DNA of 64,000 nt from Folioceros fuciformis. Taxonomy: Eukaryota. A program made the translations under genes and the position numbers. Location: NCBI GenBank assembly GCA_049999805.1, contig JBNGIO010006273.1:53637-117636 (forward strand), given 5' to 3'. Positions 8,365 through 64,000 of the stretch are shown here, one piece after another (within the stretch, counting starts at the first letter, position 1; every line of letters starts with the position of its first letter). Under the pieces are notes generated by a model. That model ran no database searches and was not told the origin of the DNA. It worked only from the letters and a program-made list of their open reading frames with translations.

Positions 8365-9806
<1,442 letters not shown>

Positions 9807-11096: not shown

Positions 11097-12850
11097 TGTG
11101 TTAGAAATCCATAGGATTTATACAACATATTTATAGTAGACTTATTAAATCTACCTCGAGTTATTTATGGTTAGGGTTTATCGAATGCTATATATATATA
11201 TATACATGCATAGACTACCCTACTATGGTAATGAGAAATACACTTGGGATTTTGTCGAAGCCTCACTTAGGGTTTTCTTAGTGTGCGGTATGTGTGTGCC
11301 AATGTGTGGTAGACTAAGCGTGGTTTGTTGAGTGTGAGCTCTATGGTCCCACAACCTTGTAGGAGGGCTCTATTGAAGTGTGGAACTTGAGAAGACGTAA
11401 AGAGCAATGCTCATCATCATGGCTTTTGAGATTTTTAGCCATAAGTCCATACCAAAAAAGTTTGACCCTACAACCTCAAACTTTTCATCTATGGGGCACA
11501 TGGCTTTTGAGAGTTCTGACCATAAGTCTATGCCAGAAAAGTTTGACCCTCAACCTCAAACCTTCATTTATGAAGAACATGGCTTTTGAGAGTTTTGACC
11601 ATAAGTCTATGCCCAAAAAAAGTTTGACCTTGCAACCTCAAACTTTTATCTATGGAGCACATGGCTTTTGAGAGTTTTGACCATAAGTCTATGCTAGAAA
11701 AGTTTGATCATAAGTCTATGCTAGAAAAGTTTGACCCTGCAAACTCAACCCTTCATCTATGGAGAACGTGGCTTTTGAGAGTTTTGACCATAAGTCTATG
11801 TTAGAAAAGTTTGACCCTGCAATCTCAAACTTTCATCTATGGAGCACGAGGATGAAGATGTTGTCTAAGAAAGAGGAGCTATGGGCGATTGTGAGCGGAG
11901 AAAGAGAGAGGTCCACAAAGCATTCAAGCACCTTGAGAGATTAGATGAAGAAGAATAGCCAAGCGTGGAATGCGATTTGTCTTCACTTAAAAGGCCCTAT
12001 TTTTAAGCATGTTAATAATTTCAAGAACTTAGCGAAGGTATGGAGCAGCTTAGGGGAGCTTTTAAAACTAAAAACTCCACACCTTCATATAAATTCTATG
12101 ATTTAAAGATGCAAAGGTGATAAGGAGATACAATTACCACTCATTTGAGCATAAAGAGAGAAGGTAAGCTTGAGGAAGAGGACATAAATTATAATCCTAG
12201 AAAGCTTATCCGCATCATATTATTCATATTATTTGCTTGTTTTTGCTTTGCATGCACAATGACAACAATTGACTGTGAAAGAGTTGACAAGTTGATTGCT
12301 TTATTAGGAGCAAAGACACAAGTGATCATAGTGTAGATAGAGGTTTTGCTTTCTACTCGTGAGGGAAAGGAAAAGGTCAATATCGTCAAGGATCAAAATC
12401 ATGTAAAGGTAATCATGATAAAAAAAGTGGATCTAGTGAAAAGTCTTCTCATGGTAAAGCTATAAATCTATATATCACTATTGTGGAAAACCCTAACCAA
12501 ATGGTGATTGTATACATATCACTATTGTGACGAAACCTAACCAAATGGTGAGAGACTATTGTTGGACAAAAGTGCATACATGAGTACCTCTAATCAAAAG
12601 AAGGCCATAACAGTGCCCATCATGTGCATGAAAAGAAGGCCACAACTATGGCCATTGTGTAGATGAAAAGGCTTAAGGAGGCTCAAAGAACTTTCTGTTT
12701 TCTTGATCAAGTACACAATATACATTATATCATTCTCTTCTAATTCTACATGCCAACATATCTAAGATACTTACTTATAGACTTATGAGCATTTTACATT
12801 TTATACATGACCTCATATAGGTCATAGTTCGTAACGTATAAGGATCATTC
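11097..12850 (+). mobile_element. Heavily degraded Copia-like remnant (LTR-like start, tandem array, gag fragment)
   Basis: TG-starting AT-rich block at ~11097. Gag-like MKMLSKKEELWAIVSGERERS at ~11850-11910, followed by stop-ridden UBN2-like sequence. Boundaries approximate. Confidence 0.5.
11418..11845. repeat. Tandem array, ~78-80-bp unit (ATGGCTTTTGAGAGTTTTGACCATAAGTCTATG...AAGTTTGACCCT...), about 5 copies
   Basis: Unit starts near 11418, 11500, 11579, 11661 and 11768. Confidence 0.85.
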
Positions 12851-13349: not shown

Positions 13350-14423
13350 AGCATAGTCCTTAGTTAAATATACATATAGAATACGAACAGGCACGAACCG
13401 TGCCCTAAAGAACGATTACCCGTCAACCGTCGTATAGGTTCACGGGACACGGCCATTAAGGCCTCACACACTCACACATTTTTGAAGAATTCATTCATTA
13501 CTCATCTTTCCTACCCTATCGATCCCGTTCACGCTATGGTATCAGAGCCCGTCAATGGACTCCGCCATGTCGCCTCCTAGTGTGTGTGAGATCTATAAAT
13601 CCGAGTCCTGCATTAGGACTTTGACACATGAAAATTTTTCGAGCTGCAATTCATGCACTCAGACTCTCACTCACCCGGTTTGGCGTGATGGCGGAAGCCT
13701 TCTTGGCGGAGGTTGTCAATCACTACTACGCGTAGCATTTGCGTACCTGGCGCCAAGGAACATTGAGCCACCCTGTTGAACCTACGTCTGCAAATTGCTA
13801 GATCGTCACCTCGGTCTCTGTCCTGCACAGTATGATCAGCCCAGTACACTTCTAGCATGGTCTGCAACTAGTTCACTGTGTGTGTAAGACTCAATCCACT
13901 GTAGGAAACAAGCTTGTGTAGGAACACCAGATCTTCTACATGTCTTTCGTAGCGTTCTCATGTACACTAGGAAACAGGTGATGATAACCGGGTATCCCTG
14001 CACACAGGAGTCAGTCCATAGGCCTGCACAAGATAGGTGAATGATTGGACTGCTATTCTAAGCAATGCCTCGCAATGGCCGCTCAAGGCGCACTTTCAAT
14101 CCACAAAGAGCCAGTGTAGCGGACGTCCGTCACCCTGCACCTACCAAGCTATGAGTTCTTGCAATACTTGTGGAAGAAGTGCACACCTGCGTCCATCTGC
14201 GAGCACACCTGGAACCACGCCTGGTCAGACAGAGCCGGCGTTGAAGACTATCCACAATTTGCTTGCTGAGGAGCGCCGTCACACTCACGCAACACTGTGC
14301 GATTTTCGGTGGATGCGTGAGGTTCAGGAGGAGCGCCTCCGCAACAAAGTCCTCATAGGGTACTCCGACCAAGTTAAAGCCTACAAACTTTGGGATCCCG
14401 TCACCCGTGATGTCATCCACTCT
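13350..14423 (+). mobile_element. Internally deleted Copia fragment (LTR, PBS, post-integrase piece)
   Basis: tRNA-Met PBS TGGTATCAGAGC at 13537-13548. Post-integrase motif VLIGYSDQVKAYKLWDPVTRDVIHS at ~14350-14423. LTR start uncertain. Confidence 0.6.
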
Positions 14424-17312
14424 ATGAGATATTATAGGCTTATTTCCTGTCCATCTTTAGTAGGGCGTTATATTTGGGAGTTCCTTGGTTGGGAGGCGGT
14501 TTTTGAGGTAGTTAGAAGTAGCTACGGCTTCTGCCAATAGCCCTTTGACAGACCAGCTAGCTTAAGGAGTGACCGTGAAATTTCTAACAAAGACCTATTC
14601 AGTCTCTCGGCAAAGGGATTTTGAGAAGGTGTATAAGGGACTGTATATTGACGTAGGATTCCTTTTAACTTGCAGAATGACTGGAAAGCGTGACTGGTGA
14701 ACTCTCCGGCATTATCAGTTCGAAGGGTACCTACCAGAAAACCGGTCTGCCGCTCACTCATGAGGAGGAACTCTTGGAAGTAAGCTAAGGCCTCATCCTT
14801 GTGTTTGAGAAAAAAGATGTGGGTATACCTGCTCCACTCATCCATGAAACTCAGGAAGTATGAATGTCCTCCTAAGGAGGGTGTACTCATAGGCTTGCAA
14901 ATGTCAGAGTGTATTACCTCGAGAAGTCGACGAGCTCGTGTAGGTGATGGGTCAGTGAAGGGAAGTTGATTTAATTTTGTATACTTACAAATCTCACAGA
15001 AAAAGTCTTGTGGAATACTGATCTTGATGGGGTCTCTATACATTGATGAGTTGGCGAAGGCATTGAGGTACCTTGGGTTGATGTGGCCAGCTCTACAGTG
15101 CCATAAGAGTGCTGTATTGGAGTTTTCTTTGTTGGAACTGTCAACTAACAGTGAGGAAGCTGAGTGAATGTTTAGCAGATACAAGTCATTATACGGGAGA
15201 CCATGAGCGAGAGCAGTTTGTGATGGGTCCTTGGCGTGGCTGATGGTACAGTGATTACCTTGGAACACTATTACCAGGTCATGTTCAGTGGCAAGTTTGC
15301 GTACAGATAGGAGGTTTTTTGTCATGGAGGGTACGTGTAAAACTCCATTGATGATGAGGTGTTCTCCATTGGATAGCCGAAGTCGAACTCCACCAGTTCC
15401 TTCGATTGATAAAGCACTGTCGTCTCCAAGCAGTACATGTTGGTCCGACAGTACATGGTAATAGGTTTCAAACGTATCTCTACTGCTGCAAATATGTGTG
15501 GTCGCCCTTGAGTCGAGGAACCACCTATGTGGATCAGTCCTGGTTAATGTGAGGCAAACTGCGAGGATGGAGTTTGCTGAGGGCAGCTTTGCTCCCGTGG
15601 TCACATGTGACTCATATCGAGGGTCATCTCTCCGTGGTTCTCCAGATTGCTTCTTTCTACACTCGCTTTCGTAGTGCCCGAGTATCTTACACCAATTACA
15701 TATGCCTTTCTGACTTCTGTTGGCAAATGGTTTGTAGCCTTGATTAAAACCAGGTTTGATGAACTGACCAGGTGTTTTCCGTCTGGAAAAACTGCCAGTT
15801 CTGAATCCTCCTCGTCTTGCGCCTCGTCCTCTCAAAGTGAATAACACGTGAGACATCCCAGCATTGGGACATGTGCTGCCTCCTCTACTGGATTCCTCCT
15901 CGAGTAAGGCTGCTATCACTTCTGATAGTGTGTTGGCTTGTGGCGTATGAGATGTTTGGCGAAGCAGCACATTCTGTGAACTCACAAAAGTTCTGTTTGA
16001 AGCAGGCAACGAAGTTAGAAGGGTGATGGCTGCTTGGTGCTCTGTAACAGTTGTGCCACTGGAAGCCAGCTTTGCTCTTGCAGAGCGGAAGTTGTGAACA
16101 TGGTGTTCAACCGTTTCAGTCTCTTTCATTTTCAAAGAGTAAAATTGTCGAGTTGCATTTATTAATGTCATCAAACTCTGTGCTTGAAACATGTCGTTGA
16201 ATGTGCTCCAAATGCCGTGAGAGGTCGCTTGACCATGGGTATGTTGAAGCATATTTCTGTCGACGGCAGAGATGAGTAGATTTCGAGCTCTCTTATCTTT
16301 CCTAACCCAGGCTGCGATCTCGTCTGCAGTTGCTGGTGGTGAAGATGTGGTTGATGGCTTGGGAGTGGTGTTGTCGACGATGGTCATCAGGTCATGCTCC
16401 TCAAGCAGAGCTGAAATTCTCATTTGCCAAATGTCATAGTCGCTTCCTGTGAAGCGATCTCGGTCACGAAATTCCAACTTCGTGGTGTTGAAGGTCAATG
16501 TTGTACTCGCGGCAGATGAACCCGAAGTCGCCATCATGTGACGGCTGCCTTGATTTGTTGGTTGCGCTTACGCCAGGGTTAGGTGTGAGCGCGTGCAGGC
16601 CTACGAGGTGTAAACGTACCTACTTCCTCTGATTGAGGACGAGCTCGCGAACCTCTAAGTGCAGTGCTTCAATTTGAGATTCGATGCAATTGAGTTGAAT
16701 TCTGATGTACTCTGGTGTTGCGGGAACGGCAGCAGGGAACGGTGCAGCATATGCACATCCATGGCTATGGCAAGGACGTATTTCGGGTACTGATTGTGAT
16801 GGAGGTGCCGTCGATGTTCGCAGCGGCAAGTAAGTCACGCTCTAGCGCGACTGATTCCCTTTGACGCCTCTGGCTCTATTGAATCTTTCGGTGCAGCCCT
16901 TATAGAATCTTGGAGACGGTGATGTGGGTCGTCCGTGGGGCGCGTAGCTTGCTGGTGAACGGCGTCGAGGCATGTTATCGTTCAGTGCGCACGGCTAGCA
17001 TCGTACGATTCTGCTTCGGGCCATGCTCACGGACTGCAATCGCGTAGGGGCGAGGCGCGGGGAAGAGGCCGAACCAGCTCTGATACCATCATACAATTAT
17101 GAGTGCGGAATAGAATATTTATTAATTTAGGTAGATGTCTTAAATACACATTCGTAATACGGTTTCAACTGTTTAACCGTATTTACGGTTTGTTTAATCT
17201 AAACTGCTTTCGGTTTAATAACTGCCTGTAAAACCCTATGTGTGAAACGTGCCCTAAAACTTGAGGGGAATTAAACTCTGAGTTCTACAGTATGTACATG
17301 GATACTCCAACA
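14424..17312 (-). mobile_element. Ty1/Copia LTR retrotransposon, 3'-truncated (5' LTR, PBS, extra ORF, gag-PR-GAG_pre-integrase-integrase; no RT)
   Basis: PBS complement GCTCTGATACCA at 17077-17088. ORF 14522-16537 has the CX2CX4HX4C knuckle, WFLDS, LWHCRAGH, IHSDIC and RTDNAGEF. Homology continues frameshifted to ~14424. Confidence 0.9.
14522..16537 (-). CDS. Copia gag-pol polyprotein (gag, protease, integrase), truncated
   Basis: 671-aa ORF with the Copia domain order gag-PR-IN. Confidence 0.9.
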   Translation of the reverse strand: MMATSGSSAASTTLTFNTTKLEFRDRDRFTGSDYDIWQMRISALLEEHDLMTIVDNTTPKPSTTSSPPATADEIAAWVRKDKRARNLLISAVDRNMLQHTHGQATSHGIWSTFNDMFQAQSLMTLINATRQFYSLKMKETETVEHHVHNFRSARAKLASSGTTVTEHQAAITLLTSLPASNRTFVSSQNVLLRQTSHTPQANTLSEVIAALLEEESSRGGSTCPNAGMSHVLFTLRGRGARRGGFRTGSFSRRKTPGQFIKPGFNQGYKPFANRSQKGICNWCKILGHYESECRKKQSGEPRRDDPRYESHVTTGAKLPSANSILAVCLTLTRTDPHRWFLDSRATTHICSSRDTFETYYHVLSDQHVLLGDDSALSIEGTGGVRLRLSNGEHLIINGVLHVPSMTKNLLSVRKLATEHDLVIVFQGNHCTISHAKDPSQTALAHGLPYNDLYLLNIHSASSLLVDSSNKENSNTALLWHCRAGHINPRYLNAFANSSMYRDPIKISIPQDFFCEICKYTKLNQLPFTDPSPTRARRLLEVIHSDICKPMSTPSLGGHSYFLSFMDEWSRYTHIFFLKHKDEALAYFQEFLLMSERQTGFLVGTLRTDNAGEFTSHAFQSFCKLKGILRQYTVPYTPSQNPFAERLNRSLLEISRSLLKLAGLSKGYWQKP

Positions 17313-18030
17313 AGCAGGGGATGATCGCTAGAGGCAGCAGCATGGGTGGAGCAGCATCGTGTGGTCACGCACAAAAGGCAATAGTGGGAAGGCAAGAGGG
17401 GGGGAGGGGACTTAGGCCGCAAGCAAGAGTAGGTGGGACAAATCCAGCATGGCCAGACATTGTTGATTGCAGTTGCAATGCCAAGAAGCGTGCCACCCTA
17501 CACCAGTAGTCCAAAGCGCCACCCCAAGCAACTCTACAGCCAACTCCACCAACACGATGCCCAACACTCTCCACCACATGCACGCATGCGCCTGGACACA
17601 GGTGCCAAGCTGCGACATGCATAGCTAGGGATCAGTGGTAGCAACTAGTGAGCGCCAAGCAAAAAAAAACTAGTGTCAGCAGACATATCTGTTTGTTCTT
17701 GCCAGACTGTCCTAGGCATCCAACAGCCGCAGCAGCAGGGGATGATCGCTAGAAGCAGCGGCATGGGTGGAGCACCATCATGTGGTCACGCATGAAAGGC
17801 AGCAGTGGGAAGATAGGAGGGGGGGGGGACACTTAAGCTGCAAGCAACAATAGGTTGGACGAATCTAGGAGGGCCAAACATGGCTAGCTGCAACTGCAAT
17901 GTCGAGATGCGTGCCACCCTACACCAACAATCCAGAGCGCCAGCACCAGCAAGTGTACACCCATGGCAACTCCGCCTACACGCCGCGCAACGCTCTCCAC
18001 CACAGACGCACGCATGAGCCGGAGCGGCCA
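17313..18030. repeat. Diverged direct duplication of ~290 bp (about 17313-17605 and 17733-18030)
   Basis: Both copies start AGCAGGGGATGATCGCTAGA and share GCGTGCCACCCTACACCA and CTCTCCACCACA...CACGCATG. Confidence 0.75.
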
Positions 18031-19815: not shown

Positions 19816-19991
19816 AAGCGTGTGTGTGAAGACAAAGGGTGAAGGGGTAAGTGAAGAGAGTGTGTATGTGTGAGTGAGTTGAGTGAGTTTAAAGTTCACT
19901 TTCCAAAACGCATAAGGAAAAAAAAAACATACCTTTCATGATATCTGGTATGTCAAACATCAATCTTGTGGGGCCTCAAATATATAGCATT

Positions 19992-20580
19992 GGGGGTCCT
20001 TGGCCTTTGAAAATCGTAGCACCATACATCACTTGGGGTCCTTAGCCTTTGAAAATCGTAGTACCATACATCACTTGGGGTCCTTGGCCTTTGAAAGTCG
20101 CAGTGCCATACATCACTTGGGGTCCTTGGCCTTTGAAAATCGTAGTACCATACATCACTTGGGGTCCTTGGCCTTTGAAAGTCGCAGTGCCATACATCAC
20201 TTGGGGTCCTTGGCCTTTGAAAATCGTAGTACCATACATCACTTGGGGTCCTTGGCCTTTGAAAGTCGTAGTGCCATACATCACTTGGGGTCCTTGGCCT
20301 TTGGAAATCCTAGTACCATACATCACTTAGGGTCCTTGGCCTTTGAAAGTCGCAGTGCCAAACATCACTTGGGGTCCTTGGCCTTTGAAAATCGCAGTGC
20401 CATACATCACTTGGGGTCCTTGGCCTTTGAAAANNNNNNNNNNNNNNNNNNNNNNNNNNNNNNNNNNNNNNNNNNNNNNNNNNNNNNNNNNNNNNNNNNN
20501 NNNNNNNNNNNNNNNNNNNNNNNNNNNNNNNNNATCGCAGTGCCATACATCACTTGGGGTCCTTGGCCTTTGAAAATCGC
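19992..20580. repeat. 42-bp minisatellite (GGGGTCCTTGGCCTTTGAAAATCGTAGTACCATACATCACTT), at least 11 copies, interrupted by an N gap
   Basis: Directly visible array; explains the AFENRSTIHHLGSL-periodic ORFs. Confidence 0.95.
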
Positions 20581-20934
20581 AGCAACCAATATCAATCGGG
20601 GCCCATGGACTATGATACCTGCTTTCGTGGAGGGGCCTCTTGGCATCTTAACCATGTCGACATGGCTTTTGGATTTTGAGGTTTCTGCTTCCATATCAAG
20701 ATGTTCCTTGAATGTTGAGGTTTTTGGTCCTTAGATTCGATTACTTCGCAACCACGAACTCTTAGCACTTTGATACTCAAGAAAATAACCATGAATATCA
20801 GTCCTTGGAGTTTGAGCAACAAAGTTTATCCCAGCTTGTAAGTACTTCAAGACATATGGCCCCACTATTCTTTAACTAGTCCAATTACTTGCATTCGACA
20901 ACAACTATATGTCATTTGGTCTTCTAGACCGACG

Positions 20935-21680: not shown

Positions 21681-24600
21681 GATATGTTTCAATTGTTAAA
21701 TATCAAATTTCGCGTAGAAGACTCACAATGTTTACTGCATTTATTTTAGTTTTATTGACATTTGGTGAATAAATACTATACGCATACATGTCGGTGGCCT
21801 TATTGTTTGTGAAAAGAGATCAAAGGTAGATATGGGCACGGATCAAGACAAACTTAAAAAGCGCAAAACGGGCTTTGTGGAATCCGCTCATCTGGGTTAG
21901 ACCTTGTTTATCAGTATGGTTTCATCTTTAACACACTTATAAACTTATTAATCCTAATCACATAGAAAAAATCATGTTAGGGGCTCAAGAAGACTTTGTT
22001 GGCCCCAACACATTACTACCTAAAACTTATAAAAGAATCGCTCTAGAAAGGTCTTTGGAACCCACACTTGGATATTTTCCTTGTTCTAATCTGTGTTCTA
22101 ACACTTGCGACAACAATCTACTATACCAGGTGTCGTGCACCCAGAGGCAAAAGTCTGCACCGTGGGTCTCGCGCGTTGGCAAAGAATGGCGGATTGCACG
22201 CGAAGCCACTCCAAAGCAATGATCGGACTCACAGAATCCTTGTGGAAACCTTACCGGTTTGGTGGCTACGTTGCATCATTTAGTGGACCCCATCCGGAAG
22301 GACAAAGATGGTTAGGTGAGGGTGGGGCGAGAAGGGTGAGTAGAGGCAGGGGGTGCGAGATGGGGACACGAAGTGGAAGATATGCAAAGGAATGCTCCAA
22401 TCCGAGTGCTTACCTCGGGGCATTCTTGACTGGTTGTTGCAGCAAGGCTTACCGGGTTTGTCCCTTGAACGTCGGAGTCATTCCACAATCTCTCGTGAGA
22501 GATTCGGACTGAATCGTCAGATGGGGAGGTGCTAACACTTGGGAAGTGTACCCAGTGGGGAGCAGGATCCCCTCGTCGACAAAAGCCTGGGAGCACCCTC
22601 CATGGATGGCGAGCGAGTGGGAGAGAGATGGAAGAGAATAGAGAGACTAGACACATACTTACCAAAAACCGAGGCCCCTGCTGGGATAGTAGGTCTATCC
22701 TTTATAACAAAAGTGGGCTCTTGGCCTGAGAGACAACCATAAATGCAAAATTATCCTAAGACTTGGGCAGGCTAGTCCTGCTAAACAACAGTTGGCTCAT
22801 TTTAATGAGCCAATGGTGGAGTGGGCAGTGTGGGGTCGGAGGAGGAATTCGTAGGAGATCTTCGTGTCAGTGAGGTGGGCCCCAAAGAAGTTTCTGCCCC
22901 TCCAATCGCTATTGCCAGATGGACAGAGCTGGCCGAAGGAAACCGGACTAACAGCTGGAGGTCCAGTGAGGAAGGTCAGGCGGTGGGGTGTTAAGGACCG
23001 CTCAGAGCTGTCCGTCCGCCCGTAGGTGCTGGTCCTGTCAACACCATCTTTGCTGTTTTGGTCAGGTTCCGCAGTACCTCCCCATGGAAGAAGGCGTGAC
23101 TATCATCCACCTGGTGGATGGTGTCAACTACCATCCTCGGAAGGGTCCTGTACTCTGGTCGCCATCATGCCTTTGGGAGCTCAGCATATTGGGCTGCGAC
23201 GGTGTTGACATGCCAACAGAGTTCTTCCAAGGTGGCGGAGGTGCCTATTGCCGATTCCCGAAAACGGAGAGCGAAGACCGCTTTGGTTTGAGCCCGAAGC
23301 AAGGTGACCTCACATTGGTCCTCATGGACCTTGTAGTCGGCCAGCTGCGATTGCAACTCCTTGGCGTTGCTCCAAAAGCCGTTCACTTAGTTGATGAGTT
23401 GCTTCCACTCCTGCTCCCAGACTTCTCCATGACTCTACATGGTCTAGCGAGTCTTGGCGAGCTCCATCTTCAAAGTGCGGACCTCTTGATGGGCAGCCTT
23501 TTTTGCCACCTGCGAAGTTTGCAGTTTGGCCCGCATCTCTTCCACTTGCTGAATGGCCTTTGCCAACTTTTGAGAGGCCTCCTCCTCTAACTCGAGGGCC
23601 CGGTTGTGCTCCTTTCGGTACCGGTCCTTATTTGATGTATACTGGCGATAGGCAGCCAGGGAGTCCGAGTCCCGTTTCCTCCATGCCTGCCGCTCCTCAA
23701 CATGTATGGTCTCCATCTTGGAGTGCGTTCTCTCCAGCTCACCCTGAGCGGCTCCGATTTGGTTCTCTAGGTCCATGTGCCCACTGGCGAGTTGGACCTT
23801 AAGGTCCGTTAGTTCTCGCAGGTAGCTGTGCCACTCCTCCCGGTACCTAGCTGACTCCTCTAGCAGCTCAGTAGTATGTTCGGCTGCTTTCTCTCTTAAG
23901 TTGGATAACTGAGTAGCTAGCTCAATCATCCTCCTCGGGAGGGCGATGTTTTTGCCCTCCCGTGCCGCCACCTGTTCGAAGGACCAGGCAAGTCCTTCTG
24001 CCACACTAGCCACAATCCCTTGGGCTGCTTGTGTGGCACCCTCTGAGGTCACTCCGGTGTAAAACTGATAGTTGGGAGGTAGCTTGGCCCTCCCGGAGGA
24101 CGTCTAGATCGCCCTCCGCATGGGCTCTAGGTCTGTGATGCCTCCGTTGATCAAATCCTCCAGGACTATTGATCGCAAGAGGGCTGGGGTGGGGACTACA
24201 AGAGCGAGGAGATCCTATGGCTTTGGGTTTAGTAGAGGGCAGGGACTACAAAATTGGAAAACCCCAAGCTCCCACTGCTCCATCAAATCACCGGCCGCAG
24301 TAATCCAGGGAGCCAGATTTGGATAGGACCTTGTCTGGATGTGCTCGGCGTTTGTTGAATAATTAATTGTTAGTTTATGATACATTGTTATATACCAAGG
24401 GGTGCTTCATCTGAAACCCTAGTTGGTAGTTATTAGTTGTTGTAACCGTTCATGGGACATGGACACATAAGTGCCTAGTTCCCATATTCAATAATATATA
24501 TATCTGCTTTGTGTGCTCTACGTGAGTAATCTCACGGTCGTGTTCGATGTTCACATATACTTCATAAATGCTACATGGTATCAGAGCACCTCGTTCTGAT

Positions 24601-24685
24601 CCTTGGTGCTCAACGGCTGTTTCTTCTCTAAGCACACCTGACTACTAATGGCAATTTCAGCCAAACCCTAGTGCTTAGTGACAGG

Positions 24686-25189
24686 ATGCCTCGTAGGAAT
24701 TCTAGTAGGCAATCTTTGCCAAAATTCGACAAAGAGAGAGTCAGGCATCCTGCTAAGATCATATTTGAAAAGAAGCCCAACAAGAATTTTGTATTTGCTG
24801 CAGAAAAAGAAGATTGGGATCGGCGGTGGATCACCAATTATCTCAGCAATCTTGGAGATAGTCGGGATTCTGATTCAGAATCTGAACAACCACAACGGAG
24901 GTCTCACATCAGAAATCAGCACTTGCGTATTGCATCATCGAGCACTCGACAGGCGCCAGAAAAATTGGTACCATACGTCGAAAGGTTTACAGAGCATGAT
25001 GCAATCCTGAACTCCATCCTGAACATTAGAAGTAAAGTGCTGGAGTATACCACTCGTGCTGATCATCTGCAATCAAGACAAGAATGCCTTGAGCATCTTT
25101 GCATTTCAGATCTGTCTACAATGGCTAAGCAAGAGCAAGAAATAAACACCCTTAGGGAGCAGATTGCTCACCTGTCACTACCCCACTAA
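24686..25189 (+). CDS. Extra ORF upstream of Copia gag (basic N-terminus MPRR, C-terminal coiled coil), function unknown
   Basis: Uninterrupted 167-aa ORF between the PBS and the gag ATG (~25215). Confidence 0.6.
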   Translation: MPRRNSSRQSLPKFDKERVRHPAKIIFEKKPNKNFVFAAEKEDWDRRWITNYLSNLGDSRDSDSESEQPQRRSHIRNQHLRIASSSTRQAPEKLVPYVERFTEHDAILNSILNIRSKVLEYTTRADHLQSRQECLEHLCISDLSTMAKQEQEINTLREQIAHLSLPH

Positions 25190-25214
25190 GCGAGATTTAG
25201 TGCTCGCAGGCATC

Positions 25215-28200
25215 ATGTCTGGGGCTGCTCCCCCAGACACGGGTTCAGATCGGTTGCAGGAAAAGGACCGTCTGAATCCAGGTAATTTCGATGCCTAGAG
25301 CTTCAGGGTGCGCTGCATCCTAGAAGAGAAACTTCTGATGGAAGTTGTAGATGGAACTGTACCAAGAAGGGTACATGGTCAGCCATCTGGAGTAATGACA
25401 CCAGGAGGTGTGAATCAAGTGCCCTGGACAACGAAAGATGAGCTAGAGTGGAAGTATAAGGACAGAAAGGCACGTACCATATTAGTTGCCTTTGTCTCGC
25501 AGGAGATGATTCCTCACATTCGATTGACGCAGTCTTCAAACGAGGTCTGGTCATTGCTATCAGAAACTTATGACTCTAAGGATATGGTAGCCGAGGCAGC
25601 AGCAACCCTGCAGTATCAGACACTTCGTATGAAGGAAAACGACTCTGTTGAGAGTCATGTTGCCGAGTTTCGAGCCTGTAGGGCCAAGCTTGCATCCTGC
25701 GGAGTGATCATAACAGAATCTAGGTCAGCAGTCCAATTGCTGCTCTCACTTCCACCTAGCTATGAACATTTCAGTTCGGGTCTGCAAACATCAGCAGTAG
25801 TCATACCTGCTACAGCCACAACTCCTGCTTCGTCTAACCTAACTGTCCAGAAAGTTGTAGGGGCGTTGCTGCAGTTTGAGGCCAATAGAAAACAAATGAA
25901 GGGTGGCCCACCTGCGTCCCATTTCTCACATAGACAAAGTGATACAGCTTTATTCTCTGGTAGAGGTAGAGGAAGGGGTAGGGGTCGAGGTAGAGGTGGC
26001 TACGGTAGGGGTAGAGGACAGGCTTCTATGTCTACGTCATCCCCTACTGGTCAGTCAAGCTCATCCTCTAAACCTGGAAATTGTAATTATTGTGGGAAGC
26101 CAGGACACTGGATTAAAGACTGCAGAAAACGAGCAAAAGACGAGGCTGCTAAAGGCAGACATGCACCTGAAGCCCACACTGCTAGGGCTACTACTCCAGG
26201 GCTGCTTGTAGCCTGTCTTACATCTTCCAAAAAGGGTTGCTAGAAGAGGTTCCTAGGCAGTGGAGCCAGCATTCATATGTGCTCAAAGAGGAAGTCATTT
26301 GTAACATACGTGCCATCTCCCACATGTCACGAGACAGCATTAGTGTTAGGAGACGACTCTACCATTCCAATCAAGGGTTCAGGAACCATTCAAATTACGT
26401 TGAAGGATGGAAGTCATCTACTGCTGGAGAATGCACTTCATGTACCAGCTCTTGCGAAGAACCTGGTCAGCACTATGGCGTTAGGGAAGACAAACTTGTA
26501 TAGGATTACATTTGAAGGCACAGAGTGCCATATCTCCAAATTAGCTACTCCAGCTGTCACAATCGCTCGTGGGACACCACTCTTTGATCTCTATCTTTTG
26601 GATTTCGAATCAGATGTTCCCGGTGCTGCAGTGAACTCCACAGAGACAAGCATTAGAACTGTTAAGGCTAGCAATGCTTTTAAGTGGCACTACCGTCTAG
26701 GGCACCCGAACATCCAGGCTATGAGGAGACTGTTGCGTGAAAAGATGGTAATTGGTTTCAATGAGAGTGAACTTCCTGATCTTGATCTCTGTGTTGCATG
26801 TGTACATGGCAAGCAGTACAAGTCGCATTTTGGAAGTGGAAAACCAAGAAAGCCCACAGAGATCTTAGATCTCGTTCATACAGACATCTGTGGACCCATG
26901 TTTGTCACCTCATGGGGAGGAGCCAAGTACTTTGTCGTGTTTGAGGATGATAAATCTCACTTCACTGTGACTGAGCTTCTTCGCCAGAAAAGTGAGGTGT
27001 TTGACAGTTTCAAGCGGTACCTCGCGTATGCAGAAAGGCAAACAGGGTATCAGCTTAAGTGCATAAGATCTGACAACAGCAAGGAATATCTATCAACAGC
27101 CTTTCAGGAGTATTGTCAAGAGAGGGGGATCACACGCCAACTGACCATTCCATATCACTCTGATATGAATGGCCGTGCTGAACGAAGACACAGGACCATC
27201 CAGGATGCTGCTAGAGCACTTCTATATCAAGGAAGGCTTTCAATCAGGTTCTGGGCAGAGGCAGTGCAAGTGGCTACATACCTTCAGAACAGGTCTACTG
27301 TGTCTTCCTTGCGTGGTTCCACTCCATTTGAAGCATGGACAGGAAGTAAGCCTGATCTTTCTCATCTTAGGGTCTTTGGTAGCACTGCATATGCGCATAC
27401 TCCTGATAAGTTACGTCAGAAGTTCGCCTTTAAGTCCAAAAGACACATTTTTATAGGATACACAGCTGGAATACATGGCTACAAGTTATTTGAACCCACC
27501 ACTCGTCAAGTTGTTCATGCACGAACAGTTGCTTTTGATGAGAGCATTGTACTTAGACCTCCGTTGCATTCTTTAGATGACTTTGTAGATCCAGACAGTG
27601 TAGAGCTGTCAGAGCCTCCTGTAGACACTGAACAAGAGGTTAGTGAATCAGACTTTGTCCATTTTCCAGCCAATGATCCGTCTTTTCTTAACCCTGTTCA
27701 GCCAGTTGTTCTTCCTCCTGTCGTCCAGCCTCCACCTGTTGTCCAGCTTGTACTGCCTCCACCAGATCCAGGTGATCCTCCAGATCAGCCTGATCTGTCT
27801 GATTCCTCAGATGATGATGCACCTGCACCTGATCATGCAGCACAAGGTGCTGATGAACACTTACTTGCTACTGCAAATCACGCTATAAACCCTGATTGGT
27901 TTGTCGATGATCCAGTAGAGTATGTCATACCTGTTTCACAGCCTGTTCTTCCACGTTGTTCCACGAGGATCAGGAGACCTCTTGCGCAATGGATTGAGCC
28001 TCCATACAGAAGTGAAGATTTCAGGAAGGTACCCAGTCCTGTTGGCTCAGCACCAGGGGAGGTGGTTATTGATGTGGTTGAGCAGGCTAACATGACTGTA
28101 AATCCAGGCTATGAGCCTCAGTCATATCGTGAAGCAGTGTCTGGTCCTGAAGCACGACAGTGAAAACAAGCAATCAAGTCAGAATATGATAGCCTTATTG

Positions 28201-29680
28201 ATAACAAGACATGGGAGATCTGCCCTCCACCTCAGGGGAGGAAAATTGTTACCTCAAAGTGGGTATTTAAATTGAAGTATAAGGCAGACGGCAGTATCTC
28301 GCGTTATAAGGCTAGACTAGTAGCACATGGGTTTTCACAAGTGCCGGGACTGGATTATCATGATACCTTCTCACCTGTCGTGAAGTCTCAATCACTGCGA
28401 GTTCTCTTTTCCATGTCGGCATTTTTCTCCTTGTTCATACGTCAAATGGATGTTAAAACGGCATTCTTGCACGGCAAACTTGAAGAAGGGATCTTCATGC
28501 AACAGCCTGAGGGCTTCAAAGTAGAAGGCAAGGAGGACTGGGTTTGTCGACTACTCAAAACGATCTACAGGCTGAAGCAAAGCCCAAGGGCCTGGTATCA
28601 ATGCATTGACAAGTTTTTGCTAGGACTGACCTTCGTGAAGAGTGCTGCAGATTCCAACGTTTATCTTCTGCAAGAGGACAAAGGATTTTTTATATTAGCA
28701 CTCTATGTTGACAACTGTATTTTACTAGGAACAGACCTAGATAACATCATGAAGGTGAAGCAACTCTTATCTGGGCGTTTTGACATGGTTGACATTGGAG
28801 AGCTCTCATACTGCTTGGGGACTCAACTCCTACGTGACCCTGCCACTGGAACTCTTACAATACATCAGCAGAAGTATATCTACAACATGTTGTTCAAGTA
28901 CAAACTCACAGATGCAAAGCCAGCACTCACTCCACTTGAAGCTGGGTGTAAACTGACAAAGGAGCAATCACCTACCTCAGATTCTGACAAGCTTGAGATG
29001 GAGGCAGTTCCTTATGCCCAAGTTGTTGGCTCTATTATTTATTGTTCCAATAACAGCAGACCAGATGTTGCACTCCCTGTTAGCATGATTTCTCAACACT
29101 TGAAGAATCCAGGGAGAGCGCATTGGTCAGCAACAAAAAGAATTCTAAGATATCTCAAAGGGACAAGTGATCATGGCATACATTACACAAGACAAGACTA
29201 TGATGAAGAGGAGCTTACCTTAGTCGGCTATTGTGATGCTGACTGGGCGGCGGATCCTGATACTAGGAGGTCAGTTTCTGCTTACACCTTCTTACTTGCA
29301 GGTGGAGCAGTTACTTGGTCGTCGAAGAAACAAACCACAGTATCACTCTCCTCGACAGAGGCAGAGTATTCTGCCCTAACACAAGCCTCGAAGGAAGCCA
29401 TATGGCTGAGAAGGTTGCTAACTGATCTTGGACAAGCACAGAAGGGCCCGACTGTCATTTATTGTGACAATCAGTCTGCGTTGGCATTAGCACAGAACCT
29501 TGTCTTCCATGCTAGGACTAAGCACGTGGAAGTTCACCACCACTTCATTAGGCATGTAGTTGAAACAGGACAGTGTTAAACTGGAATATGTGCCAACAGA
29601 ATCAAACGCAGCTGATATACTTACCAAACCCTTACCCAAAGCGAAGCACTATCAATTTAAGAAAGCTTTGGGAGTCCTTA
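25215..29680 (+). pseudogene. Copia gag-pol with premature stops and altered catalytic motifs
   Basis: ORF pieces 25308-26243, 26277-28163 and 28272-29579. Motifs CNYCGKPGHWIKDC, VHTDICGP, QMDVKTAFLHG, LYVDN (normally YVDD), YCDADWA and STEAEY. Confidence 0.9.
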
Positions 29681-32600
29681 GCCCACTTCATACAAACAAC
29701 AGTTCCAGCAGTTCATAAGATGTACACTTCAGGAGTCATGGTATCATTTGCTCCATCACCGTCAGTCACCACATGCCTCATCTTGTGTATACGACCTAGC
29801 GGCAACTTGAAATCTCTGGGCTTGTAGGCTTCAGGAGCTACAACCTTGTCCAGACCCTCAGTCAAGTCTTCATTCTTAGTCATGATGCTCCAGGATCCGT
29901 CAGGAGCAGCCTGTTTTTGCTTGGAGGTGGAAGCTGCAGACTTCTTCAGAGCAGCAATTTCCTCCTCAAGCTTGGTCTATCTCTCCTACACCTCCTTCAG
30001 CATCCCTTGCCAGGAGATTCAATAGCAGCTGAATCAGGTTGTGCCCTGCTTAGGGCAGCAGCGGTCAGCTCCTCATCTTCAGACGCGCTATGGTACTCTT
30101 CAGCTGGATCAGTTTCTTCTGAAGCAGACAAGTAGATTGGCGCAGCTTTGGACCCGTTTGCCATCGCGCTCAGCAGTGTGTGCTCATAGTCTTCTCAGTT
30201 GAGCTTCCGCAGACTCTTACGACTGGCAGGAGCGCGGGCAGGCGTAACTTAGGAATTTTCAAGTTGGCTGTTTTCTGGCCTCTATTCTGGTTTTCTAAAT
30301 TAGTTGTATATACAATGAGAGGGGGTGTTGAATAATTAATTGTTAGTTTATGACACATTGTTATATACCAAGGGGTGCTTCATCTGAAACCCTAGTTGGT
30401 AGTTATTAGTTGTTGTAACCGTTCATGGGACATGGACACATAAGTGCCTAGTTCCCATATTCAATAATATATATATCTGCTTTGTGTGCTCTACGTGAGT
30501 AATCTCACGGTCGTGTTCGATGTTCACATATACTTCATAAATGCTACAGCGTTGAGCTTCCAAGGGTTGCCGATCTCTAAGAATTGCCCTGGCGACATGG
30601 GTGGTAGTTGGGAAGCCGTCGAGGGTGAGGACGAAGGTGAAGGTGAAGATCGTTGGGACACGGTAGAGAGCGGGCGTGGAAATGTCACGCAAATGAGAGA
30701 AGTGCAGGGAGTCGAAGTGATGGAATGAAAGAAGAGTAGGGGGCGGGAAGCGAGAGAGAGGTCAAGGGAGATGGGGCGTATCGGCTGGCGTAATCAAGAG
30801 TAAGCACTTACGCTCCAACACTGGTACGCCTGCAATCGCCCGTGGCGGTTACGCCCTGCCATTTGCATGATGTCAGAGTCCTCGTTCTTGATCGGACTAT
30901 CTTGACAATCAGTCCGGCGGCTGATTCGGTGGAAGAGACTCCGGCATGCTGGTTACTCCAAAAACTCGACTTTGCTGCCACTGTTCTCTAGTCTACCTTA
31001 TGTGGTCGAACTCCGAAAAATTACTCTGGTAGACTATCAAAGTAGAGCTCCGATAGATATTTTGGGAGTAGACACCAGGGCAATGCACTCTTTAATACAT
31101 ATTCTCTCTAGAGCATAGTGCTATGCAATCTAGAGTAGTGACATGCATTACTTGTTCAAAATTGTGTAGAGGTATGTCATTTGACAGAGTCTTGACTAAA
31201 GATTCTCAAATACCTTTTACTATTATGTTTTTGCCACAATCTAACCTTGGATGTTTGAGAAACCTTTTAAAATGAAAGATACCCTCGGATAAATGCACAT
31301 CATCGATGCTTAATACAAGAGCAATATATTACACCGGCACTAGTGAAGCCTTTTAAAATTTAAAAGGGCTAAAAATGCAAATCTCTTAGCATGTTTTGCT
31401 TTGAAGTAGACTACTTTCCTTAGTTCTAAGTTATGCACCAAGATTACTAACCACATAACTCACTAGACTTGATGGCTCATAAATAATAATGCTTCTTATA
31501 ATCATAAAAATCATTATTATCATAATTAGTCATGAAACTAACTAGATTTTGATGTCTCATAGCATTATACTTATAATCATAAGAATCATCATCATCTTAA
31601 CAACAACAACAAAAAAAACAATATTATAAATATCGAGACTTCATTATCTTTGTAGTCTATATAAGTGTGGGTGCATGACTTTGAATTCTATCCTATCCTC
31701 TAGTTCATTATTTGGCTATTTTGTGTTATTGTCATACTTGTGGAGGATAGTTAGGCTACCATTATTACTTCCTATCACCACCATCAAGTCCTATCAACCT
31801 TAACAAAGTACTTTAACTCTAAAGATGCACTTTGTTAGTTTTATTTTACTAAAGATTGCACTTTGTTAGTCATATTTTGCTAAGGATTGTACTTTGTTAG
31901 TTATGTTTTGTTGTTTTTTCTTTTTCTTTTTTCTTCTTTTCGGCAGGCTTTCACCAATGCTAATTGTACATGCAGATATGGAAAGAAAAAAAAAATCTTC
32001 AAAGACAATGTCCGGTTTATCAATTACTTCCGAGATAAAGGTGAGAGCAAAGGGACCATCAATATTGGCTCATATGTGCGGGGTTATTGCTGCTTATAGC
32101 ATTGGTGCACCTTTACAAACACCATGTAAGCAAAAAGGATGTCTAAGAACAAAACCTAAGCTAAAGAATAGGGGCAATGTTTCTTTGCAGCCAGATGAAG
32201 GCTTACAATGTGCATCAAGGAATTCTTCAAGTTCAAGGATCATGAGAGAGGTAATCATATATGGATTTGTGCTTTTTTATTCGGATGTAATTAGTACGGG
32301 AGTTACAGATGCCAACATCAATTAATGCCCTAAGAGAAATGTTTAACTAAACAAGAGTTGCAGAAACGGAAAGCTTTGAAGGAACGAATGGAATATTTGT
32401 GTGAAACGATGTGGAAGGGAGATGAGTTTGATGAGGAGGGTGACAAAATAATAGATTATGAGTTGAATAACTCCACATGTGAATTGGGGACGTTACAAGG
32501 TATTTTGGGCATAGGGGAACTTTATTCCAATGACAATAATAAGGGCAAAGGATTGAGTCCTCCCAATGTTGCTCAAAGTGGGGGCCCACTTCATAGCTTA

Positions 32601-34050: not shown

Positions 34051-37000
34051 AAGAAAACAAAAAGGTGGTTATTTCATGATCGGGCACCTTTTAAATGCAT
34101 CTGACAGTTATTTATAGTTTAGGTTTTAGTTTATGAAACCTTTAGAAATCTCATTGTTATTAATTCTACATATTCACTTTCCTAATTCACTTGTCTATAC
34201 TATGCTGCAACTAGGCTACAAACATCACACTTTTCTACTCCCACTTAGACTAGCGTGCTGTATATCAACTTTATCTCCACTTGGGTCTTGTTCTTCGAAT
34301 GCTATAACACCTAACGCTTTAGTGTGTTTCCAGTGTGCCTCCTTGGAAAGTGACTTTGTCAATTGATCTGCCATATTATCACTCAAGCTAATATACTTCA
34401 GCTCAAGCACAACATCTTCTATTGCCTTATGAATAAACTGCTATTTAACATCTATATGTCTTGTTCTTGAGTGAGCCACGAGATTCTTAGCTATGGCTAT
34501 TGCGGATTGATTATCACACCAGATACATGAAGGTAATTTCAGGTTATGTCCAAGTGTTTCTAGCAATGACCTCATATGCATCAACTCTTGAGCTGCAGAT
34601 GTGACTGCCGAATACTCTTGCCTACCCCTCCTCTCGTAGGTAGGTTGCCTACCATTCCCACCCATTGTCGTAGGTAGATAGCCAACCCCATTGCCGTAGG
34701 TGGGGTGTCTACTGTATAAGTACCTTCCCTACCTACGTAGGTATCTTCCATTTTCCCACGTAGGTACTCTCTCTACGTATGTAGGTAGACATCCTACTAT
34801 GTAGGTATCTTCTTATTCTAACCTACCAGAATAGAACTAAAAAAAAACGCCATAAAAACCTTCACTATCCGCTCACTACCTACCATGGGCACTTGCCCAG
34901 AAACCTACCTTCCACATGCCTTCCTTCGAACTATTTTGAACAAAAAGAAACCAAGTTAGACTTTCCTAGACCGATTACCAAACTTTTCCGTTCCACAGTC
35001 TTGAAGTCGAGCTTTGTCCTGACTTCCTTAGGTATGTGCACAAAGACCTTACATCCAAAGATCCTAAAATGAGAAATGGCTGGCTTCCTACCTGTCCAGC
35101 GTTCATACGGTGTGGAGACCTTGAAAGCTGTGGTGGGAAGTCGATTCTGTACATAAGTAGCAGTGTGAATTGCCTCTGCCCAGTACCTCCTTGATAGTCC
35201 TGACTGGTATAGCATGGCTTTTGCAGCTTCTTGCACATAGCGATTCTTAGATTCTGCAAGTGGATTTTGGCTGGATGTGTATGGGAAAGTGATCTGTCTT
35301 TCTATGCCAAGTGATCTGCAAAAATCTTGGAAATCACCACTGTTGAACTCTCCTCCTCCATCACTTCGAAGAACTTTAACCTTATTCCCAGTCTGTCTTT
35401 GTGAATAATTCACATAATCTACAAATCGATCAAGTGCCTCTGATTTTTGACGTAGGAAATTTGTCATAGTAAAATGGCTGTAATCATCTAGCAGCAACAT
35501 AAAGTAGGAGGCTCCTCCAAGAGATTTGACAGACATGGTCCGCATAGGTCGGTATGTACGACAGCAAGTGTTTCTGTGGCCCTATTTTGCTCATGAGGTT
35601 TCTTAGCATTTTGTTTTGGAAGCTTGGCATGAATACAGGCATCGCAAAGTACATCTACTTCCTGGACTGTTCAGGGAACCTTCTCTTGATACAGGTGTTC
35701 ACCAACCATGTTCTTCATTTTATTATAGTTCGGGTGTCCCAAACGACAATGCCAAAGCAGCTGATTACTGTCTTCCTCCAAACGCTTAGCTAAGTGTGCT
35801 CGAGTATGTGAGCTACTAGCACTTATCCCAACATGGGTGCAGCAATTAAGCCTATACAAGTTTGAATCCAAAACTCCTATGGCCAACTCGTTATGAGTCT
35901 TGCTATCAATCAGTCTGCACTGTTTTTCATCAAAGCTCACTTTGACACTCACTCTTGGCACACATGTCTAACAGACATAAGGTTCTTCACCATCTGAGGA
36001 ACGTGAAGAACCTTATTCAGCCTTCTCACAGAGCCATCATACAAACGAATTTTTACTATCCCCACACCTAGCTATGTTCAGTCCACTCTGATCTCCCAGC
36101 AAGACAAATTGTCCGGGTGAGATTGTTGATAATCATCGAAGCTATCTCGATCATAGCAAATATGAGCCGATGCACTTGAGTCCATAAACCAGGATTGTTC
36201 ATCTGACTTAGTGTGCGCTAGAAACATAGTCAGTATGACATTGGAGCTTGAACCTGACGCCTTCATTTTTTAGATCATGTTGGCTTCAGGTGATCCAGAT
36301 TTTCGTGGATCACCTGCTCTCTTCTTTCGGTAGTCAGCCTCTATGTGGCCCATATTCTGACACCAGTTGCAAGTAAGCTTTCTGTGATTCGGATTGGGTG
36401 GAGTTCGTGTGCCCACAGTCATGGGCCTCCCTTGCAAGATCGAGCGGTTCCCGAATCTTCCTCCTCGACCACCTCTACCTCCTCTGCCAGTGTAGAGAAT
36501 GTGAACGTGTGAAGAATGACCTTGTCCTCTGTTCGAGCCCATCGAAGCCTCTTCCTTAAGCAGAGCCCCGATGGTGGTGGACAACGAAACCGTTGATGCT
36601 GCAGCCGTATGAATGCTGTTGTTTTGAGTACTTACGAAAACTCTGTACTTGTCTAGCAGCGACGTCAAGAGAGCAACAGAAGCCTGAAGTTCAGTGACCG
36701 TCGTGCCAGCAGTAGCAAGCTTCTGTCTCAAATGCCTCAAACGCATAACATGCTCTTCGACTGTCTCCGAATCCTTAATCTTGCAGTTCCAAAACGAGCG
36801 GGTGGCATGAACAAGTGATGATTGATTGGTTGTGGCAAACATCTGCGATAGGGCTGTCCAAGCCAGATGTGCCGTAACAGCATCTTCGATATGGTGCTTC
36901 ATGCTGTTATCAATGGTTAGTTCTAGGATGGCCCTAGCCTTCAAATCCTTCTTATTCCATGCTGTAATACCTACTACCGCTGCGTTTTGTCCCGGGTGAG

Positions 37001-38588
37001 GAGCAGAGCCATCCACCACCTCCCACAAGTCTTCTATCATCAAAAGGGTCTTAACCCTATGTGCCCAGACATCATAGTTGGACCCTGAGAATCGGTCCTT
37101 GTCCTTAAAATCAAGCTTCATTGAAGTCGTCAAGTTTGGTTGAAATCTCCGTTGATGAGCAACTGACTGCGTGAGCCAAGTTGGCAGGCTGCCCGAAAAC
37201 CAATCTCGTGATTTTGACGGGGGTGGAGAAAACGACCTTGACTGGGAACGAGGTTGCCCGGCTTCTCTCAATTTTTCTGCGGAGGTGGCTCTCTTAAGTG
37301 GCATACTGNNNNNNNNNNNNNNNNNNNNNNNNNNNNNNNNNNNNNNNNNNNNNNNNNNNNNNNNNNNNNNNNNNNNNNNNNNNNNNNNNNNNNNNNNNNN
37401 NNNNNNNNGCTGCGTTTTGTCCCGGGTGAGGAGCAGAGCCATCCACCACCTCCCATAGGTCTTCTATCATCAGAAGAGTCTTAACCCTATGTGCCTAGAC
37501 ATCATAGTTGGACCCTGTGAATCGGTCCTTGTCCTTAAAATCAAGCTTCATTGAAGTCGTCATGTTTGGTTGAATTCTCCGTTGATGAGCAACTGACTGC
37601 GTGAGCCAAGTTGGCAGGTTGCCCGAAAACCGATCTCGTGATTTGACGGGGGTGGAGAACACGACCTTGACTGGGAACGAGGTTGCCCGGCTTCTCTCAA
37701 TTTCTTTGTGGAGGTGGCTCTCTTAAGTAGCATATTGGACATGCCACCTTAACAGGCTCGAAAGCGTCCTCATGTTGTTCACGACCTCTAACAGGAACTT
37801 GCGATTGAATCACATGCGTCGTGTCAAAAAGGACTTGTAGCCTTATGGATACTCCCTCCAGAATCTGCTCCAGAGAAGTGATATGATCGTGGAACCCCTG
37901 AATCAAAGAAGGCAAATGATCCAGTGAGCCTAAGCCCATTTTTCTGGCTAGGTATCCCGATTGCTTACGACATGAACAATTGGATGGCTGCCAAAAAGAT
38001 CTTCTTGACGGTGTAACCGCAAATGAAGGAGGGTGCGAATTGTGGCAATCTATGTGCCTAAGAGTTCGAGAAAACGCCTCTCCTATGTTGGACAGAAAAC
38101 TTGGCGAGAAATCTCTGCTCTGCCAACCTACAGAGCGCCCTCTATCGCGGCCTCTGCGCGGCATGGTGCATGCAATTCATGTGGATAGAGACCACAGATA
38201 GGAAGAAATCGAGACATGCCGATGCTGCATACTGAAGATTGCAGGAATCTGTGCGTGCAACACCGCCGAAGCCATGGCACGAATTTTGCAGGCGTGTAAT
38301 CACAACACCCTGGAGAATCTAGCCGTGAGCATCAAGTAGTGATTCCATCTCATGCCGCGCTCAATTTGAATGCCACCACCTGGGATCCCGATCTGATACC
38401 ATAGAAAAACAAAAAGGTGGTTATTTCATGGTCAGGCACCTTTTAAATGCACCCAGCAGTTATTTACAGTTTAGGTTTTAGTTATGAAACCTTTAGAAAT
38501 CTCATTATTATTAATTCTAGATATTCACTTTCCTAATTCACTTGTCTATACTATGCTGCAGCTAGGCTACAAACATCACACTTTTCTA
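34051..38588 (-). mobile_element. Older Ty1/Copia element with RT region deleted, LTRs of ~187 bp
   Basis: LTRs at 38402-38588 and 34051-34237 (roughly a dozen differences). PBS complement TCTGATACCA ends at 38401. PPT AAGTGGGAG. Gag 36270-37120, protease WFMDSSAS, integrase 34931-35545, RNase H CDNQSAIAIAKN at 34441-34615. Confidence 0.9.
34617..34916. mobile_element. Terminal fragment of an element related to the 2086-5747 unit, replacing the Copia RT
   Basis: CCTAC-rich and ends CCGCTCACTACCTACCATGGGCACTTGCCCAGAAACCTACCTTCCACA, similar to 5701-5747 CCGCTCTCTACCTATTGCGGGTACTTGCCAAAACCCCGCATTCCACA. Confidence 0.7.
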
Positions 38589-38728
38589 CTCGTGGGATAG
38601 GAATATAGGATAGGAATATACCAGATTGGTGGTTTAGAACTATGTAGGCTACTTAAGCCCCTATTTTTATTTATTGGATTTATTATGTAATTTGAGTGTG
38701 TTAAGAAGAAGCTAAAAAAGTCAGAAAG

Positions 38729-53375: not shown

Positions 53376-58856
<5,481 letters not shown>

Positions 58857-59949: not shown

Positions 59950-60007
59950 GAAATGTAACTCGAAATGTAACTCGAAATGTGGCTCGAAATGTAACTCGAA
60001 ATGTAAC
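59950..60007. repeat. 12-bp tandem repeat GAAATGTAACTC, about 5 copies
   Basis: Directly visible, bracketed by two copies of CATCGAACCTTAACG. Confidence 0.85.

Positions 60008-60539: not shown

Positions 60540-64000
<3,461 letters not shown>

Follow-up and report, generated by a model that had tools for sequence, protein, structure and literature searches.

Introduction

Copia elements are regarded as the simplest long terminal repeat (LTR) retrotransposons, with one gag-pol frame. Extra open reading frames (ORFs) placed 5' of gag are described as features of the Ty3/gypsy lineages Tekay, Ogre and Tat in the accessible text of three studies (PMC6317226, PMC2533021, PMC11728184), and the 3' env-like ORF of SIRE is the only extra ORF named there as a lineage trait of Copia (PMC6317226). 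The additional ORFs (aORFs) at the 5' side of Tekay elements are reported to encode disordered products with few helices and predicted nuclear signals, which cannot be aligned between species (PMC11728184, accessible sections). Here we analyze a stretch of 64,000 nucleotides of Folioceros fuciformis (assembly GCA_049999805.1, contig JBNGIO010006273.1, positions 53,637 to 117,636, forward strand; hereafter “the window”), in which every Ty1/copia 5' end carries a small ORF between the primer-binding site (PBS) and gag. Judging from the comparison of these sequences, we consider it on balance probable that the upstream ORF encodes a lineage-conserved, fast-evolving, putative 5' accessory protein of a plant-type Ty1/copia group.

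The searchable part of one broad survey lists 582 Copia elements with extra ORFs, distributed in 45 similarity groups, and its supplementary lists may hold 5' cases (PMC6317226). Since this survey scored extra ORFs only when they reached at least 250 codons, frames of the size considered here would have been missed by it. A 5' ORF as a trait of Copia is not described in the openly searchable passages considered from PMC7264820, PMC6317226, PMC2774666, PMC4093653, PMC2533021, PMC9181549, PMC11728184 or PMC8220671, a scope that includes neither subscription papers nor the supplementary extra-ORF (eORF) lists of PMC6317226.

Results

Upstream ORFs Between the Primer-Binding Site and gag

A sense-strand ORF beginning with ATG-CCN-CGN is situated between the PBS and gag in 4/4 Copia 5' ends of the window (elements E1–E4; Table 1). 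It is separate from gag, in another frame, and about 60–170 codons long; its product starts with MPRR in E1, E2 and E3 and with MPRN in E4. The three MPRR frames had been pointed out in an initial annotation of this DNA, that of E1 with one stop, and all of them were recovered where they had been placed. The fourth frame, missing from that annotation, lies on the plus strand in E4 and opens with ATG-CCT-CGC-AAT at 14065. Two of the copies are intact (E2, E3), and E1 and E4 are broken by a single in-frame stop each. In E1, the ATG occupies 16973–16971, the in-frame TAG 16844–16842 and the final TAG 16622–16620, with the gag ATG following downstream at 16537 in another frame.

The four carriers have diverged widely. 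Comparison of their LTR-plus-leader regions by blastn recovered the PBS alone, in agreement with the earlier remark that the LTRs show no evident similarity, and the gag proteins of E1, E2 and E3 (three compared) are 36–45% identical. Because their leaders and LTRs are unalike and their gag proteins so distant, the four elements can be considered old, separate families.

The shared start ATGCCNCG occurs once in each leader, with probabilities of 0.07, 0.014, 0.04 and 0.04 across the four leaders under 2000 dinucleotide shuffles per leader. In the same shuffles, a frame as long as that of E2 (167 codons) was never obtained (0/2000, P < 0.0005), and the 155 codons of E3 gave P = 0.023. The variable bases of the shared start are third codon positions: Pro2 is encoded by CCT, CCT, CCG and CCT in E1–E4, and Arg3 by CGA, CGT, CGC and CGC. 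At position 4, Arg is encoded by both of its codon families in E1–E3 (CGC, AGG and AGA), and E4 has AAT (Asn). The synonymous variation of the Pro and Arg codons thus suggests that a peptide is under constraint, and not a motif in the DNA or RNA. Furthermore, when codon usage was scored with the gag-pol of the elements themselves as training set, the ORF frame came out positive and the other two frames negative in E1, E2 and E3; the test is weak and partly circular, since any frame free of stops obtains a better score by construction.

The proposal of a conserved 5' ORF in Copia made in the initial annotation is supported as regards the position, the start and the Pro/Arg residues kept through synonymous codons in the four elements. 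The conservation of sequence that it implied is much weaker past the first four residues, where E2 and E3 are the only pair with a marginal resemblance (P = 0.027).

The Copia Carriers

The composition of the window (46.8% G+C, CpG observed/expected of 0.60, five N gaps) is eukaryotic and plant-like. The sequence TGGTATCAGAGC, which we take to be the complement of the tRNA-Met 3' end and hence the Copia PBS, was found four times in the window by a pattern search allowing up to one mismatch, with 0.31 matches expected, and every match heads a Ty1/copia element. This assignment agrees with the tRNA-Met PBS being used by most Copia elements (PMC6317226, accessible text).

E2 is structurally complete: its LTR pair (222/223 identical) is flanked by a 5-bp target site duplication (TSD), the PBS adjoins the 5' LTR, and the purine tract GAGAGGGGG precedes the 3' LTR at 30326. 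Its Pfam matches follow the Ty1/copia order (Retrotran_gag_2, Pol_BBD, gag_pre-integrs, rve, SH3_retrovirus, RVT_2), and parts of the same order are present in E1 and E3. The gag-pol frame of E2 contains three in-frame stops (25296, 26241 and 28161). E1 breaks off past the integrase core, its gag-pol frame being open for 671 codons and ending abruptly at about 14522. E4 is internally deleted, its leader passing into a C-terminal portion of an integrase at about 14330–14440 (SH3_retrovirus Pfam match on 14037–14537), and this jump is an internal deletion or rearrangement. No second LTR was found within the window for either E1 or E4, both of which are truncated. E4 (13537–14540, +) lies tail-to-tail with the truncated E1, whose frame end at about 14522 adjoins it. 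A 230-bp segment adjoining or within the 5' LTR region of E1 is duplicated 421 bp away with 81% identity (17313–17963).

In E3, gag begins at 37563, pol is in fragments, and the stretch 37309–37408 is an assembly gap of 100 N. The flanks of this gap (36979–37308 and 37409–37737) are 94–96% identical copies of one stretch spanning the end of the upstream ORF, the leader and the gag start, and a gag stop on one side is a sense codon on the other. The duplication probably represents two copies or haplotypes collapsed at the gap, not a true tandem duplication.

TABLE 1. Features of the four Copia elements, with positions numbered along the window (TSD, target site duplication; PR, protease; INT, integrase; RT, reverse transcriptase; RH, ribonuclease H).
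Feature	Position	Strand	Basis or remark
E1 upstream ORF, 117 codons, MPRRRSPASY...QSR(stop)SVTYLPL...LVLNQRK	16620..16973	-	Feature reported in the initial annotation
E2 upstream ORF, 167 codons, intact, MPRRNSSRQ	24686..25189	+	Longest ATG ORF of the leader
E3 upstream ORF, 155 codons, intact, MPRRGRDRGRS	37697..38164	-	Translation
E4 upstream ORF remnant, MPRNGRSRR, 59 codons to second stop	14065..14241	+	One in-frame stop
E1 PBS TGGTATCAGAGC	17077..17088	-	Exact match
E2 PBS	24576..24587	+	Pattern match
E3 PBS TGGTATCAGATC	38390..38401	-	One mismatch
E4 PBS	13537..13548	+	Exact match
E1 gag-protease-integrase frame	14525..16537	-	Pfam Retrotran_gag_2, Pol_BBD, gag_pre-integrs, rve
E2 5' LTR, 223 bp	24353..24575	+	TSD GCGTT at 24348-24352
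E2 gag-pol, order GAG, PR, INT, RT, RH	25215..29579	+	Pfam and translation
E2 3' LTR	30326..30548	+	Purine tract before; TSD GCGTT at 30549-30553
E3 whole element	34054..38591	-	LTRs 38406-38591 and 34054-34240, 94% identical

Predicted Products

The first 25 residues of the predicted products of E1–E3 contain 6–8 Arg plus Lys, 0–2 Asp plus Glu and 3–5 Ser, so that the Arg/Ser-rich head noted earlier is borne out by composition; an arginine-rich motif is thus present in these three, and E4 begins with MPRNGRSRR. Such a head is compatible with a nuclear-targeting or RNA-binding signal. A short motif with the consensus F/Y-L-S-N-I/L-G-E/D is common to E2 (YLSNLGD) and E3 (FLSNIGE), with a weaker version in E1 (FYKGCTE).

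The heptad-like tail that had also been proposed was examined with a crude score of hydrophobic residues at a/d positions against 500 shuffles. The proposal is supported in E1 (0/500 shuffles reaching the score, best window at residues 88–115), E3 (P = 0.008) and E4 (P = 0.046). For E2 this score is not significant (P = 0.16), although AlphaFold2, run with no alignment, predicts a helix over residues 92–163, with a predicted local distance difference test (pLDDT) value above 90 over most of it, behind a disordered stretch (residues 1–95). In E3, AlphaFold2 places helices at residues 21–35, on the shared motif, and 84–122, with low confidence. A homodimer prediction for residues 90–167 of E2 scored 0.08 (mark 0.32), which gives no verdict.

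Searches for Relatives

No Pfam family matched the upstream ORF products above its cut-off; the best matches, G-gamma (E = 0.022) and SPATA24 (E = 0.03), remain far below gathering scores, and none of the Pfam families known from Ogre/Tat-type ORFs matched at E up to 1. A word-indexed protein search covering near-length proteins retrieved 21, 17 and 5 candidates for E2, E3 and E1, respectively, none of them at E ≤ 0.01. phmmer of the E2 product against 1.84 billion representatives gave 0 matches at E ≤ 0.001, and the ESM Atlas provided no usable match for the upstream ORF product.

Within the window, tblastn of the three products located no further copies apart from a duplicate, at the gap flank, of the 12 C-terminal residues of the E3 product, and blastp against the window ORFs of at least 120 residues related the products neither to gag-pol nor to any other of these ORFs. 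A scan based on the gag alignment gave 143 pattern matches in viral contigs, none of them confirmed, and 393 in metagenome contigs, among which a single locus (L001) was confirmed. This locus is a distant Copia (27% identity) that has neither this PBS nor an MPR-start ORF, and is uninformative here.

Read Data Over E2

Four sequencing runs (X1–X4) were aligned to 24560–30330, corresponding to E2. DNA contigs cover the upstream ORF, and the possibly-RNA run X3 has no cover there. No variant falls inside the E2 ORF among the 40 listed of about 1380 variants. In DNA contigs of X1 and X2, a different base removes the gag-pol stop at 26241; either this position is intact in sister copies or alleles, or the E2 copy was mobilized in trans. 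A contig of 180 nt from X3 joins 25695 to 25806, within the gag of E2, with 0 mismatches; its ends are not GT..AG and lie in a short direct repeat, so the junction is more suggestive of a deletion variant or an artefact of assembly than of an intron. Nearly all the differences between run X4 and the window (24560–30330) are C>T (383 places) or G>A (305 places). The run thus resembles DNA after bisulfite treatment, and could be used to read the methylation of these elements.

Other Features of the Window

The window also contains several features apart from the four elements. An array of at least fourteen 42-bp tandem repeat units, split by an N gap, occupies 19898–20615; the ORF across it shows a spurious-looking NOD2_WH Pfam hit, of which no matched stretch passes alone. 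A short gag-like fragment (11870–12110, +) with no PBS match is immediately preceded by about six 80-bp tandem repeats (11376–11894), and the two together may be another decayed retroelement leader. Besides, Pfam hits were obtained for DUF7869 (E = 6.5e-15; ORF 800–1462, -) and for an N6_N4_Mtase DNA methylase (E = 2e-6; ORF 5838–6476, +); the latter is unusual in a plant-like genome, and may represent the passenger of a transposon or DNA of foreign origin. Two host genes were also recognized, a peroxidase in two adjacent frames (8368–9465, -) and an ABC transporter (53370–62466, +) with very long exons, including a 674-residue open frame with ABC_membrane and ABC_tran.

Discussion

A Gene or Something Else

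A real gene is favored because a frame with the same position and the same start persists in four families with unalignable leaders, and because a layout in which a basic head is followed by a short helix and a heptad helix recurs among them. Several observations weigh against a conserved accessory protein. The sample is limited to four elements, all found within 64 kb of a single genome, and two of their upstream ORFs are broken; these broken frames (E1 and E4) are no longer than expected from shuffled leaders (P = 0.71 and 0.31), and the codon-usage score fails for E4. As the elements are decayed, the intactness of the E2 and E3 ORFs carries no significance of its own within a copy: three stops in the ~1455 gag-pol codons of E2 correspond to ~0.35 stops expected in 167 codons. 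The products resemble each other poorly, both by Smith-Waterman comparison against shuffles (P = 0.33 for E1–E3 and also for E1–E2, besides the marginal E2–E3 value given above) and by pairwise BLASTP among E1, E2 and E3 (E = 0.056, 0.092 and 37), and the mean pLDDT of the E3 model is only 38. Furthermore, small ATGs precede the ORF in these elements (two in E1, one in E2, eight in E3), which makes its efficient translation less obvious.

Leader ORFs regulate translation in plant pararetroviruses, and the frames described here might act likewise as regulatory upstream ORFs (uORFs), throttling or timing gag-pol translation while the peptide itself is functionless and just the start, its context and a rough length are kept. 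The ORF body is indeed almost unalignable between families, a purine is found at -3 in all four start codons, the ORF ends 25–134 nt ahead of the gag ATG, just 3–6 ATGs intervene between the ORF start and the gag start, and short ORFs also precede the upstream ORF. Such a role needs neither a Pro-Arg-Arg kept through synonymous codons nor a basic head and heptad helix in four unalignable sequences, and 150 codons is far above the usual length of known regulatory uORFs; we regard it as rather unlikely. The frames could also be open by chance, or be functionless relics whose MPR start was left over from a common ancestry of the leaders, as would fit the two broken copies, the unremarkable lengths of E1 and E4 and the lack of a homologue in the protein databases searched. 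We consider this distinctly improbable: none of the 2000 shuffles reached the E2 length, and the motif is present in 4/4 leaders against a per-leader chance of 0.014–0.07. Since the rest of the leaders diverged beyond detection, a neutral relic should have lost both the 8 conserved bases and the 150-codon frames.

Retroviral glyco-Gag, arising from an upstream start, provides the model for a further alternative, in which the ORF extends Gag or serves as its upstream exon, being joined to it by splicing or recoding and giving a longer Gag isoform. The gag ATG is offset by 1 modulo 3 from the ORF in E1, E2 and E3 (436, 529 and 601 nt), for which the chance is ~0.11. In E1, on the contrary, the gag frame stays closed until 16567, 53 nt past the end of the upstream ORF, and a frameshift therefore cannot join the two. 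Spliced reads were not seen either, but as the possibly-RNA run does not cover this part, this speaks neither for nor against the alternative. A Gag extension seems very unlikely. Slighter still are the prospects of the conserved ATGCCNCG being a nucleic-acid signal (tRNA primer contact, dimerization or packaging) with incidental open frames. Ty1 has extra tRNA-contact boxes in a comparable region, and ATGCCNCG is located at similar distances from the PBS in E1 and E2 (98 and 103 nt), but it is farther away in E3 and E4 (225 and 516 nt, respectively). The bases that differ are exactly those at third codon positions, and CGN alternates with AGR in the fourth codon, which fits a peptide and not base pairing.

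Proposed Role of the Accessory Protein

Arginine-rich heads usually mean nuclear import or RNA binding, and long amphipathic helices usually mean multimerization. If the upstream ORF encodes an accessory protein, its predicted product would consist of the MPRR head in an Arg/Ser-rich disordered stretch, followed by the short helix motif and a long amphipathic heptad helix. The basic head would target the protein to the nucleus and/or bind RNA, and the helical tail would make it multimerize. Because of this combination of an Arg-rich head and a long amphipathic helix, the most economical role would be an action on the element's own genomic RNA, which the protein may export, protect from silencing or package. 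That the predicted protein is nuclear-localized or anti-silencing, as first suggested, is a guess. With a frame of 117–167 codons and 3–6 ATGs preceding gag, translation of gag-pol would in turn need reinitiation, shunting or a spliced RNA.

Rev and Rex are small retroviral accessory proteins that combine an arginine-rich stretch with a helical multimerization part and act on unspliced RNA. A bolder and doubtful proposal, drawn by analogy with them, is that the ORF ahead of gag encodes a small Rev/Rex-like factor, with a protamine-like MPRR head for binding the unspliced RNA of the element or for entry into the nucleus, and a coiled-coil tail for multimerization, serving genomic RNA export or packaging or as a shield against silencing. 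If so, these Copia elements would be “complex” retroelements in the retroviral sense.

Should the conserved 5' protein be real, accessory genes would evolve in Copia lineages too, and it would offer a handle on RNA export, on gag translation behind a long leader and on host silencing. It would also make a case for re-scanning Copia leaders at a lower size cut-off. That Copia can carry small 5' accessory genes is a testable lead, resting on four decayed copies.

Comparison With Known Systems

The likeness of the predicted product to Rev and Rex is limited to the arginine-rich stretch and the helical part, an analogy with no sequence relation, and both retroviral proteins are made from spliced 3' exons instead of a 5' ORF. 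Among plant elements, the env-like ORF of SIRE (Sirevirus) is likewise an extra frame in Ty1/copia and is highly heterogeneous between families, as far as the accessible text of PMC6317226 describes it. It differs in being located 3' of pol and in spanning several hundred codons; in none of the four elements does the upstream ORF lie between pol and the 3' LTR, all four having it between the PBS and gag. Ogre and Tat likewise carry an additional sense ORF ahead of gag, as a trait of their lineages (PMC2533021, PMC6317226, accessible sections), whereas Ogre ORF1 has ~500 codons and belongs to giant gypsy elements with other tRNA primers.

The closest analogue is the 5' aORF of Tekay, also referred to as ORF0 (Retrosat2, RIRE3/8, sunflower Tekay group 2), likened here by description. 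According to the available portions of PMC11728184 and PMC3485330, it is likewise in sense orientation between the 5' LTR/PBS and gag. Its product is also largely disordered with few predicted helices, the Tekay ones having predicted nuclear signals, and it is similarly kept within a lineage while being unalignable between distant hosts. On the other hand, the Tekay carrier is Ty3/gypsy and its ORF reaches ~400 residues in sunflower, whereas the carriers here are Ty1/copia, the integrase preceding the RT in the Pfam matches of E2, and their ORFs have 60–170 codons. A small 5' ORF in Copia is, in this sense, an extension of the extra-ORF phenomenon known from plant LTR retrotransposons, and not a new kind.

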